From assembly GCA_046290465.1 (NCBI GenBank), contig JBKAGP010000001.1, positions 4,512,001-4,576,000 of the forward strand: DNA of 64,000 bases. The letters run 5' to 3'. The stretch is from Planctomycetota bacterium. GTDB taxonomy: Bacteria > Planctomycetota > UBA1135 > UBA2386. Below the pieces are notes generated by a model, which was given only the letters and a program-made list of their open reading frames with translations, was not told the DNA's origin and ran no database searches. Positions 6,361-9,998 of the stretch are shown one piece after another (position 1 is the stretch's first letter; the number at the start of each line of letters is the position of its first letter). A program made the position numbers and the translations under genes.

Positions 6361-8799
6361 ATGGAATCCCGATTGCGCCTGTTGTTGACCCTGTTGCTGA
6401 CGCTGACCGCGTCGCTGTATGCGCAGGGCGATCCCAAGTTCAAGCTGAAGGCCGCGCTCGAGCCGGCAACGGCCGCGCCGGGCCAGGAGGTCCAGCTGGT
6501 GCTGACCGCGACGACGCAGCACGGCTGGCACGCCTACGGCACGCTCGAGACCAGCAACGTGCCGGTGTCGCTCGACACGTCGGGGCTCGACCTGGTCGGG
6601 CTCGAACGCAACGGTGAGGCCGAGATCCCGCCGGGCATCCCGGACGTCTCGCAGTATGGCACGCAGTATCCGTTGCCCGAGTCGTTCCGCGTGACGGTGC
6701 CGCTGAAGGTCGCGGCCGACGCGAGCGGCGAGCTGAAGGTCGCGGGATCCCTCGGCTACCAGATCTGTGAGCAGGGCCGCTGCGAAGCGCCGAACGAGGC
6801 GCCGTTCGAGGCGGCCGGCAAGCTCAGCGAGGGCAGCGGCGAACCGGTTGCGCAGCAGCCGCAGGAGCCGATCCCGGTGCCGGGCCTCGGCACGGTGCCC
6901 GGCCTGATGCTCGACCCCGACCAGAAGGTCACGATCACGGCGAAGTTCGAACCGGCGATCGTGCGCGCCGGCGAGGTGACGACGCTGGTGCTCGACGTCG
7001 AGGTCGTCGACGGCTGGCATGCCTACGGCGTGCTCGAGACCGGCCAGATCCCGGTCGGCTACGACCCGTCCAAGCAGGACGTCGGCATCCTCGAGTTCGA
7101 AGGCCAGCCGGTGATCCCGCCAGGCGACCCGACGGACTTCCACGGCACGACGCAGTACCAGCTGCCGCACCACTTCGAGGTCAAGCAGACGTTCCGCGTG
7201 CCGGCCGACGCCGAGCCGCGCCAACTCGCGATCGGGGGCGTGCTCGACTACCAGGTCTGCGACGAGAACGGCTGCGACCAGCCGACCGAAGGCGAGTACG
7301 AGGCCGAGCTCGAGATCGAGGCGGGCGAGGCGCGTGAGGGCCGGACCGAGGCGCCGAAGGTCGAGCCGCAGGACGACGGTTCGGTCGGCGAGGAGACGCT
7401 TGCCAGCCCCGACGATCCGTTCGCCAGCTGGTGGACGCTGATCCTCGCGTGCATCGGCGGCGGCCTGTTCGCCCTGGCGATGCCGTGCACCTATCCGATG
7501 ATCCCGATCACGTTCAGCTTCTTCACCAAGCAGGCGGAGAAGACCGGCGGCAACGTGCTGCCGCTGACGATCACCTACGGCCTGGGCATCATCGCGATGT
7601 TCGTGTTCGTCGGGGTCGCGCTCTCGGCGATCATCATCGACGTCGTCAACCACTGGGCGACCAACACCGTCATCGGGGTGATGTTCTTCTTCTTCGCCGC
7701 GGTGCTGTTCGGATGGGTCAACCTGAACCCGCCGCAGTTCATGCAGAAGCTGGCGACCAAGGCGCAGATGTCGGCCATGGGCGGCGGCAACGAAGGGAGC
7801 ACCGGCCTGTCGCTCGGCGGCCTGGCCGGCGTGTTCTTCATGGGTGCCACGCTGGTGCTGACCTCGTTCACCTGCACGGCGCCGATCGTCGGCTCGCTGA
7901 TCGGCGGCATCGCCAAGCACGGCTGGGAAAAGGTCGCCGTCGGCATGGGCATCTTCGGCCTGACGATGGCGATCCCGTTCATGGTGCTGTCGCTGATGCC
8001 GACCAAGGTCAAGGCGATGCCCAAGTCCGGCGAGTGGATGGAGACGCTCAAGATCTCGCTCGGCTTCGTCGAGCTGGCGGCGGCCTTCAAGTTCGTCTCG
8101 ATGGTCGACATCGCGTTCGGCTGGGACGCGCTGCCGCGCGAGCTGTTCCTGATGATCTGGGCTGCGGTGTTCGGCATGTGGGCGCTCTACCTGTTCGGCG
8201 TGATCCGCAAGGCGGGCACGCCGAGCATGGGGGTGAGCAGCGGCCGGATGGCCAGCGGCATGATCGTCACCCTGCTCGCGACCTACTTCTTGTTCGGCGC
8301 GATGGGCAACCGCATGGACTCGATCATGACGAGCTTCGTGCCGGCCTACTCCAACCGCATCGTCATGAAGGGCGAAGGCGGCGCGGCCAAGGTCGAGACG
8401 CACATGGTCGTCAAGGACGACCCGGCGAAGGCGATCGAGGTCGCCAAGGCCGAGGACAAACTCGTGCTCTACAACTTCACCGGCTTCAATTGAGGCAGCT
8501 GCCGCATCATGGAAGAACAGATCTTCCTCGAGGAGGCGGTCGCCTCCCTCATGAAGCAGCACCTGGTCGAAGCGCGTCTGCACACCGATTCGCAGAAGCA
8601 CCTGACCGACGAGCAGTTCGCCAACAACAAGAAGGCGCAGGCGGAGCTCGCCGGCGTCACGACCAACCCGTACTTCGTCATGGTCGACCCGACCACCGGC
8701 GACAAGGTCGCGGAGTTCTCGCTGTCCGGCGGCTTCGGCGCCTGGAAGGGCAACTGGATCCAGTTCTTGCGGGGCGTCGCCAAGAAGACCGGGCGGTAG
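6361..8799 (+). CDS. dsbD: DsbD-like thiol:disulfide interchange protein, candidate selenoprotein (in-frame TGA at 8491-8493, UxxC), 812 aa if read through
   Basis: Signal peptide; two DsbD-alpha-like domains (YQICEQGRC, YQVCDENGC); transmembrane domain with MPCTYPMIPIT and SFTCTAPIVG; thioredoxin domain YNFTGFN-TGA-GSCRIMEE, in frame with ORF 8509..8799. Confidence 0.85.
8492..8546 (+). promoter_or_regulatory. Candidate bacterial SECIS-like stem-loop
   Basis: GGAAGA(8511-8516)/TCTTCC(8522-8527) upper stem with loop ACAGA; GCCGC(8501-8505)/GCGGT(8536-8540); GAGGC(8492-8496)/GCCTC(8542-8546); lies directly 3' of the in-frame TGA. Confidence 0.5.
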
Positions 8800-8806
8800 T
8801 CGGCGC

Positions 8807-8836
8807 GGCCTGGATGCCGGCTGCGGCATCCAGGCC
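8807..8836. terminator. 13-bp stem hairpin between convergent genes
   Basis: GGCCTGGATGCCG-gctg-CGGCATCCAGGCC just after the dsbD TAG; no U-tract. Confidence 0.55.
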
Positions 8837-8924
8837 CGTATTCGCGCGCGTCGAAGCCCGCTGGGTTGCGATGCGCAAAGACCGAACGCCTACGGCAACC
8901 GGGCGCAGGGCCCGCTGACGCGGC

Positions 8925-9998
8925 CTACCGACCGCGCCTGCCCTTCGCCTTCTGGAACGGCAGCCGCCCGGCCTCGACGCACCACGTCATCTTCTGCTTC
9001 CACACCCGAGCGCCCTTCTGGTCGTACTCGGCCACCCGCGTGTTCTCCGCGACCAGCGTGTTGCCGTTGGGCAGGCGGTCGGCGTCGCTCGGGGACGACA
9101 GCCCCTTGAGCGTCCAGACGCGCTTGCCCTGCGCGTCGACCTCGACGACCTCGCCCTTGTTGCGCAGTGTGATCAGCGTGTTGCCGTTGGGCAGGCGGTC
9201 CGCGTCGTGGGCATTGGGCATGCCTTCGACCTGCCAGACGATCTTCTTGGCCTCGTTGACCTCGATCACGCGGTCCTTCAGCACGTCGCTGATCAGGTAG
9301 GTGCCGGCCGCAGTCTGCTCGACGTCGAACGGGCGGATGTTGTCGTCGTAGCGCCAGACGGTCTTGCCGTCCTTGTCGACGATCAGCACCTCACTGCCGA
9401 ACGTGTTGGCGATCAGCGTGTTGCCGACCGTGAGGCGCGACGCGCAGTAGGGGTTCTTCAGCCCTTCGTACTGCCAGACCCGCTTGCCGTTGCGGTCGAC
9501 CTCGGTGATCCGGCTGACGCTGAACTCGGTGATCAGCGTGTTGCCGTTGGCGAGGCGCTTGACGTCCCAGGCGCCGAACACGTCGTCGAGCACCCAGACA
9601 TGCTTGCCGTTGGCGTCCATCTCGACGATGCGGTTCTCGGAGTAGTCCGCGACCAGCGTGTTGCCGCGCGGGCCGAACCGCTTCGGGTCCTGACGGTCCG
9701 GATCGCGCTCGTCGTCGGGCGCGACCGCGTGCTGGTCGTCGCCGTCGTCGAGCCACGCGATCCCGCCGACGACGCCGGCACCGCCGAGCAGGCAGGCGGC
9801 GAGCAGCCACCGCGACAGGCGCGTCGCCGGTGGCGGCGCGTGCGCTGCGCGCGACCGCGGTTCGCCCGCGAGGGCGTCGAGGATCCGGCTGGTGAGAGAA
9901 CGGTCGGGGCCGAGGCCGCCGAGCTCCGTCAAGGTCGCTTCCATCTGCATCTCCTCCGCACGTTGTCGTGCCGTTGGTCGGTCTTCTCGTTGGGTCAT
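8925..9998 (-). CDS. Putative anti-sigma factor: single TM helix plus beta-propeller repeat domain
   Basis: TM segment WLLAACLLGGAGVVGGIAWL; repeated RLPNGNTLI...EVD..GK.VW units; ATGA-coupled to the ECF sigma. Confidence 0.7.
   Translation of the reverse strand: MTQREDRPTARQRAEEMQMEATLTELGGLGPDRSLTSRILDALAGEPRSRAAHAPPPATRLSRWLLAACLLGGAGVVGGIAWLDDGDDQHAVAPDDERDPDRQDPKRFGPRGNTLVADYSENRIVEMDANGKHVWVLDDVFGAWDVKRLANGNTLITEFSVSRITEVDRNGKRVWQYEGLKNPYCASRLTVGNTLIANTFGSEVLIVDKDGKTVWRYDDNIRPFDVEQTAAGTYLISDVLKDRVIEVNEAKKIVWQVEGMPNAHDADRLPNGNTLITLRNKGEVVEVDAQGKRVWTLKGLSSPSDADRLPNGNTLVAENTRVAEYDQKGARVWKQKMTWCVEAGRLPFQKAKGRRGR

Follow-up and report, generated by a model that had tools for sequence, protein, structure and literature searches.

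A predicted selenocysteine-containing DsbD of Planctomycetota, with a candidate SECIS displaced behind a second hairpin

Introduction

The commonest kind of selenoprotein is that in which a UxxC motif lies within a thioredoxin fold. One of the domain classes concerned, cd02953, we take to be that of the DsbD gamma domain. In the accessible part of the GOS study, UxxC proteins are filed under cd02953, and one Trx-like 2 read carries a proteobacterial-type DsbD-gamma motif with U; the FTG motif and a DsbD membrane domain are both absent from all the Trx-like 2 sequences given there (PMC2398784). The portion available to us of a table of 119 selenoprotein families lists no DsbD with selenocysteine (Sec) in gamma, the nearest entries being TsoB and the "thiol:disulfide interchange protein" (PMC13188914), and the accessible part of a supplementary table of planctomycete selenoprotein candidates likewise lists no DsbD (PMC4807772). 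PMC5029168 has no matching terms, NCBIfam holds no model for a Sec-DsbD family, and a literature search for Sec-DsbD and planctomycete SECIS elements found no description, although subscription papers and bioRxiv supplements may mention one. Thus, Sec in a DsbD-gamma-like fold has a precedent, and a conserved full-length family has none in the literature searched.

The function of DsbD is best followed in E. coli, where, according to the accessible text of PMC2631958, electrons pass from thioredoxin to the beta domain and then through gamma and alpha to client proteins. The same text reports that Asp455 and Glu468 raise the pKa of the attacking Cys461 to 10.4 (10.4-10.5), which prevents non-specific oxidation, and that in the D455N variant this pKa falls to 9.2. 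In the accessible part of PMC3322552, Bacteroides homologues form a distinct DsbD branch, and the ScsB class is described as reducing TlpA, as it does in Caulobacter, and an envelope peroxiredoxin pathway. As for the decoding of UGA as Sec, the bacterial SECIS (bSECIS) model places 16-37 nt between the UGA and the apical loop, with some genes that do not fit (PMC13188914, accessible part).

A dsbD gene with an in-frame TGA

The window, that is, the whole stretch of DNA analysed, comprises 64,000 nt from a Planctomycetota genome. Positions are those of the window unless the source contig is named.

6361..8799, + strand: dsbD gene, 812-aa candidate selenoprotein (signal peptide, alpha1, alpha2, beta, gamma)
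8491..8493, + strand: in-frame TGA, candidate selenocysteine 711 (orthologue column, independent contigs, tree)

The open reading frame begins at ATG 6361 and reaches TGA 8491-8493 after 710 aa, ending in YNFTGFN. Past this TGA, the same frame continues as GSCRIMEEQIF... for 101 codons up to a TAG stop at 8797-8799, which gives a total of 812 aa with U711. The TGA falls at the attacking-cysteine position of the C-terminal thioredoxin domain (FTGFN-U-GSC); the first-pass annotation had proposed precisely this placement and the 812-aa frame, and both were borne out; in all orthologues read that have the TGA, it lies in this very column. Its observation that codon bias does not change past the TGA also held, with a GC3 of 0.954 upstream and 0.950 downstream, as did its statement that the other redox cysteines are intact (C136/C141, C300/C305, C376/C505 and C714 are all present). 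The Pfam thioredoxin-type models DsbH, Trx_2 and Trx_7 span the TGA with E values of 1.7e-5 to 9.4e-4, each below its cut-off.

The TGA is not a sequencing error, because contigs from three other runs, belonging to three studies and none flagged as the source, cover 7900-8855 and leave 8491-8493 unchanged; each differs in 8-11 letters over that interval, none of them at the TGA. Nor is it a chance event, because 135 of the 150 class matches listed have an internal TGA and the column is the same throughout. The contigs of other strains diverge at 8855. One RNA run contained only pieces from a relative, which end at 8424, short of the TGA.

The genome, a single contig estimated as 94% complete, has a single DsbD_TM match, and a search with that model found no second gene of the DsbD or CcdA type in it. 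It also carries a cytochrome c assembly gene. The gene is flanked upstream by one for a TPR protein and, on the other strand, by one for a propeller protein; no client gene is among these immediate neighbours. Searches at the locus for a sigma-70 promoter or a downstream terminator found neither. Right after the stop codon, at 8804-8840, there is a GC-rich inverted repeat without a T run.

In the databases, the family appears mostly in shortened form, as had been predicted for standard annotation. The exact 710-aa truncated product is on record in a protein collection, and of the best 120 database homologues, 115 end at the UGA, 4 read through with Cys and 1 does otherwise. The entries checked are recorded as truncated DsbD, CcdA or hypothetical proteins.

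Conservation and exchange of Sec and Cys

A homologue is present in 234 of the 278 genomes surveyed in the class; of the 150 matches listed (86 more exist), the 15 that lack an internal TGA are Cys forms. At the Sec column, 123 orthologues have 105 TGA, 16 TGC and 2 TGT codons and nothing else, in a set that includes all 15 listed Cys forms and only part of the TGA forms and is thus not a frequency sample; three paralogue rows, all TGC, were excluded from this count. Across the phylum, 179 of 401 genomes matched. A further 40 loci, mostly from outside the class, were picked as 33 with TGA and 7 without: the 33 stop at the same position of the motif (27 with the TGA at the motif by pattern, 6 by the same stop position in its sequence context) and the 7 have Cys. 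TGG was not found at this column in any of the 123 orthologues or 40 loci read. In each of the 25 TGA loci examined, a conserved frame runs on past the TGA for about 88-110 codons without a stop. The named relatives are mostly labelled Planctomycetota.

In a quick LG+G4 tree, for which the Sec site and SECIS-coded residues were masked and branch support was by SH-aLRT only, 9 changes between Sec and Cys are needed, at least 8 of them forced by well-supported branches. Several Cys genes fall within groups of Sec genes, which suggests repeated reversion from Sec to Cys, a direction that depends on the outgroup root. Loss of the Sec machinery was considered as the cause of these reversions and rejected, as 9 of the 10 genomes examined that carry the Cys form keep selA. 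The survival of Cys forms beside selA means that Sec is dispensable in some lineages.

In two of the Cys-type DsbDs (genomes G028 and G036), two gamma domains apparently stand in tandem, and their FTG..C..C motifs differ. Genomes G011 and G009 carry Cys-site gamma-like paralogues beside the Sec-DsbD, and the match in G009 has a later in-frame TGA.

Selenocysteine machinery and the reading of UGA

The genome encodes selA (453 bits), a full-length selB (354 bits over model positions 1-578) and a selD that has its own in-frame TGA and adjoins selA. A tRNA-Sec with anticodon tca (UCA) and a long variable arm scores 72.8 bits, and it is the only tRNA with a UCA anticodon found in the genome. The selA-selD pair is located at G000:C1:1309144-1313217, with selB and the tRNA-Sec far off on the chromosome. 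Among 41 related genomes, selA is found in 40 and tRNA-Sec in 40. TGA is the commonest stop of this genome and ends 1273 of its 2170 long open reading frames; thus, there is no general recoding.

This last figure would also fit a TGA that is simply a true stop, with a gene that is truncated or split and a gamma part that is dead or separately translated. An ATG lies 6 codons past the TGA, and the databases annotate the gene in this manner. A restart at that ATG, however, would lose both U711 and C714. The conserved downstream frame, a column that alternates only with Cys codons, the decay of the hairpin described below where TGA has become TGC, and a genome in which no other DsbD or CcdA was found all argue against a true stop as well, and we judge this reading to be exceedingly improbable. 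A different possibility is that the UGA is not read as Sec, and that a special tRNA or general read-through gives Cys instead, or Trp at a low level. tRNA-Cys species that read UGA have been described in a few bacteria, and 18 of the 123 orthologues make do with Cys in this place. Against this stand the sole UCA tRNA found, which scores as tRNA-Sec, the intact selA and selD, the use of UGA as a normal stop genome-wide and, for Trp, the lack of TGG at the column in any orthologue read; decoding as Cys or Trp is, in consequence, very improbable.

With high confidence, the TGA-containing dsbD is instead predicted to be a real selenoprotein gene with Sec at the attacking residue of gamma. The first-pass annotation had preferred a selenoprotein to a broken gene and had named three checks: independent support for the TGA, the presence of selA, selB, selD and tRNA-Sec, and the state of the codon in relatives. 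The contigs of the three other runs, the machinery and the alternation of TGA with TGC or TGT (105 against 18 of 123) all agree with it.

Two hairpins downstream of the UGA

8511..8527, + strand: hairpin A, +18 to +34 after the UGA, 6-bp stem and variable 5-nt loop (pairing across the family)
8532..8547, + strand: hairpin B, candidate SelB-binding SECIS (RNAalifold helix; GGUC loop at 8538-8541, +45 to +48)

Downstream of the UGA there is a covarying stem-loop whose loop begins with GG, and which is lost in Cys genes. In an RNAalifold consensus of 66 in-register TGA sequences, with 5-nt-loop variants and near-duplicates left out, only hairpin B was recovered, with 3 of its 4 pairs compensatory. 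Its loop is the same as that of E. coli fdhF. Among in-register rows (4 TGA and 2 Cys rows with indels being dropped), the GGTC loop is found in 95 of 101 TGA genes and in 0 of 16 Cys genes; when the position is left free, the GGTC hairpin motif is found in 96 of 105 and 0 of 18, respectively. Nine of the 105 TGA genes lack the motif, and 8 fail a stricter hairpin test. Of 8 independent pairs, about 6.6 have GGTC on the side of Sec, and no pair has it reversed (median sign-test p 0.016).

With its start at +45, the loop lies outside the consensus bSECIS distance and has the second hairpin in front of it; variants with indels place it anywhere from +39 to +51. Within the interval +16 to +37, a G-loop hairpin is seen in only 15 of the 105 TGA genes. 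By comparison, the G-loops of the genome's other candidate Sec genes lie at +20 to +32, and in distant Planctomycetota the G-loop hairpin of dsbD is at +21, +25, +45 or +53. Two distant genomes (G288 and G453) have hairpins at +21 and also at +45.

Hairpin A is paired in 92.7% of cells, with two-sided changes in 3 of its 6 pairs; it was not recovered by RNAalifold, its loop is variable without a fixed G in the clade, and it is partly dictated by the M-E...F-P codons. The pair 19-33 is kept in 94 of 94 sequences as against 5 of 16 Cys genes. As a whole, the two-hairpin structure pairs in 90% of cells versus 42-62% in slid controls, a figure that is favoured by the derivation of the structure from the same sequences that were scored. 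The local fold of the window is not unusually stable (z -1.2 to -1.8), and the best Rfam match over 8300-8950 (E 0.87) is not meaningful. A three-way junction with CAUG/CAUG as its closing helix, suggested by the window's own fold, was rejected: its pairs 14-61, 15-60 and 17-58 form in 48, 49 and 27 of 94 sequences.

Alternatively, Sec might be inserted with hairpin A itself as the SECIS, since its loop at about +24 lies in the canonical range, and with hairpin B as an accessory element. The extent of its pairing and its weakening in Cys genes would be in keeping with such a role, and three distant relatives (G306, G447 and G456) have a G-loop hairpin at +21 or +25. Nevertheless, it is hairpin B, not hairpin A, that has the nearly invariant loop with the consensus GG/GU start and that RNAalifold recovers alone, so that a SECIS in hairpin A seems unlikely. 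With hairpin B as the candidate SECIS, hairpin A is probably a folded spacer part of the element.

The codon immediately before the UGA (8488-8490) is a rare AAT. More generally, A or T is the last letter of the Asn/Thr codon in this position for 59 of 84 Sec genes, a strong enrichment compared with 285 of 3709 such codons elsewhere in those genes, figures in which kin are not independent.

Domains and topology

6361..6423, + strand: predicted signal peptide, aa 1-21 (Leu-rich core after a basic start, ending in L-Y-A; read by eye)
6433..6831, + strand: alpha1, Ig-like DsbD-N domain with C136-x4-C141 (PF11412, E 3.8e-10)
6919..7329, + strand: alpha2, Ig-like DsbD-N domain with C300-x4-C305 (PF11412, E 1.3e-4, below the cut-off)
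7429..8304, + strand: beta transmembrane domain with C376 (MPCTYP) and C505 (FTCTAP) (PF02683, E 2.1e-17, over the cut-off)
8386..8796, + strand: gamma, thioredoxin-fold domain with N705, U711-G-S-C714 and E718 (match to 3f9u)

The protein has the features of the DsbD superfamily: Cys-paired Ig-like alpha domains, an eight-helix beta domain with two cysteines and a thioredoxin-fold gamma domain with C/UxxC. Of the anatomy given by the first-pass annotation, the thioredoxin gamma domain and the Cys pairs stood, whereas the second alpha domain and the SECIS had been missed. Alpha1 matches the N-domain of ScsB (6c29) with a VIA Z of 9.5 and an rmsd of 3.5 over 125 aligned residues. Alpha2 is a tandem duplicate of alpha1 (42% identity, E 7e-32). 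Both cysteines are present in 73 of 73 rows covering C136 and C141 and in 76 of 76 covering C300 and C305, and C376 and C505 are invariant in 88 of 88 aligned rows. Structurally, gamma best matches its Bacteroides counterpart 3f9u (VIA Z 16.1, rmsd 2.4, 129 aligned), which phmmer also finds with an E of 1.2e-4, in an alignment that sets a Cys against the UGA.

The AlphaFold model has a pLDDT of 85.6 and a pTM of 0.63, with the expected domains present. In a Foldseek search with this whole multi-domain model, generic Ig repeats dominate, and the E. coli DsbD domains and CcdA are absent among the rows listed for it and for the VIA comparison. A model helix at 556-586, added to seven hydropathy peaks, brings the membrane helices to eight, and their basic loops alternate between the two sides. 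An exported N-terminus followed by eight helices would place gamma outside the cytoplasm; the model is thus consistent with a Sec on the periplasmic side, as had been supposed from the usual DsbD topology.

Proposed mechanism and candidate clients

In the proposed decoding, SelB with Sec-tRNA(UCA) would bind the GGUC-loop hairpin 45 nt past the UGA, and hairpin A would probably fold out 17 nt, so that the effective distance to the loop becomes normal. If catalysis follows that of E. coli DsbD, cytoplasmic thioredoxin would reduce the membrane pair C376/C505, which in turn would reduce a U711-C714 selenenylsulfide. The U711 selenolate would attack the C-x4-C disulfide of alpha1 or alpha2, alpha and gamma being the textbook interacting pair, and the alpha domains would reduce envelope clients. 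Judged from its conserved residues, the protein would transfer electrons across the membrane to periplasmic substrates.

By spacing, Asn705 occupies the place of Asp455 and Glu718 that of Glu468. On the analogy with the E. coli variant, the combination of Sec and Asn would largely remove the pKa gate, trading protection for speed. In the class set, 104 of 105 Sec genes and 16 of 18 Cys genes have Asn at the Asp455 position. The Sec genes of the wider sample are divided between Asn (16) and Asp (11), and its Cys genes have Asp in 7 of 7. A strict tie of the Asp-to-Asn change to Sec was therefore rejected, given the 16 class Cys genes with Asn and the 11 wider Sec genes with Asp.

The likely clients would be exported TlpA/ResA-like proteins, many of them containing Sec, that would serve cytochrome c maturation and MsrA-type repair. 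A scan of the genome found five genes for TlpA/ResA-like proteins with signal peptides, each with its in-frame TGA in W-U-x-x-C; a GGUC hairpin at +32 is common to four of them. It also found a DsbH-like protein and, including those five, the following candidates (positions on the source contig).

near 2746927, 5113979, 1207500, 3673738 and 2896767: TlpA/ResA-like Sec candidates
2322014-2323393: Sec candidate fused to DsbD-N, deiodinase/redoxin-like, C-L-T-U, exported
3354830-3356464: Sec candidate fused to DsbD-N, I-U-I-C in a region without a Pfam match, exported
4806938-4808008: VPGUxxT thioredoxin with an MsrA-like part and two in-frame TGAs, above its NCBIfam cut-off
3811758-3812531: lipoprotein MsrA with a Sec candidate

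Both DsbD-N fusions keep the DsbD-N Cys pair. It is plausible that the exported Sec-TlpA and MsrA proteins are clients of this DsbD. Taken jointly, the observations could be read as an envelope reducing pathway based largely on selenium, with an ungated Sec-DsbD as hub, two alpha domains, Sec-TlpA, MsrA and DsbD-alpha-fusion clients and a two-hairpin class of SECIS; this combined reading is tentative, and we would place it slightly below an even chance.

Implications

A Sec-containing DsbD would add a widespread, single-copy membrane electron relay to the list of selenoproteins, and envelope redox homeostasis in the lineage would depend on selenium. It also poses a chemical puzzle: the gamma Cys of E. 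coli is kept unreactive by its high pKa, against futile periplasmic oxidation, whereas a selenol would be ionised. With regard to decoding, the SECIS geometry would lie outside the working model, and the repeated natural losses of Sec offer built-in controls. If a two-hairpin SECIS beyond the accepted distance is indeed used, gene finders based on SECIS elements would miss it. Finally, the annotation is corrected for a family whose database entries, where checked, show truncated genes.

Comparison with known systems

E. coli DsbD (NF001419) has in common with this protein the order of domains, the two-Cys alpha and beta pairs, a thioredoxin gamma domain in which the attacking residue comes first and, by spacing, the Glu at +7 that corresponds to Glu468. 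It differs in that here Sec replaces Cys461, there are two C-x4-C alpha domains and, again by spacing, Asn stands for Asp455. The NF001419 score is 99.3 against a cut-off of 330, which places the protein in a subfamily separate from E. coli DsbD. The Bacteroidota-type branch (DFTG..C..C; 3f9u) provides the nearest solved gamma domain, and full-length homologues of Bacteroidota, Pyrinomonadaceae and Fidelibacterota have the same motif. Of 120 such proteins compared, 103 have Asp and Cys and do not stop at the site; among the other 17, which do stop there, are the Planctomycetes-labelled proteins and two that bear another phylum label or none. The ScsB class (6c29) shares the three-domain plan and includes the best structural match for alpha1, but here both Ig domains are Cys-paired and match Pfam DsbD_N.

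Among known selenoproteins, the "thiol:disulfide interchange protein" or "Trx-like 2" group (PF13098, cd02953; WP_011366075.1) also has UxxC in a thioredoxin fold that resembles DsbD-gamma; its representative, however, is soluble, with about 190 aa and no membrane domain (deep-Sep supplement). TsoB (NF045694), which resembles a rhodanese/DsbD fusion, is likewise a selenoprotein with a DsbD-like membrane domain (E 7e-21). In contrast to the present protein, it has, by the accessible part of its description, a rhodanese N-terminus instead of alpha domains and UxxxxU with two Sec instead of UxxC; the score with NF045694 is 73.9 against a cut-off of 805, and there is no rhodanese match. As for the recoding element, hairpin B resembles a bSECIS in that it lies inside the open reading frame and has a 4-nt loop starting with GG on an upper stem of 4-6 bp, and it differs from one in the +45 position of its loop, instead of 16-37 nt, and in the extra hairpin in between. 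Compared with all these systems, the most distinctive additions would be a displaced two-hairpin SECIS that the Cys revertants have lost and a pKa gate that has been removed.
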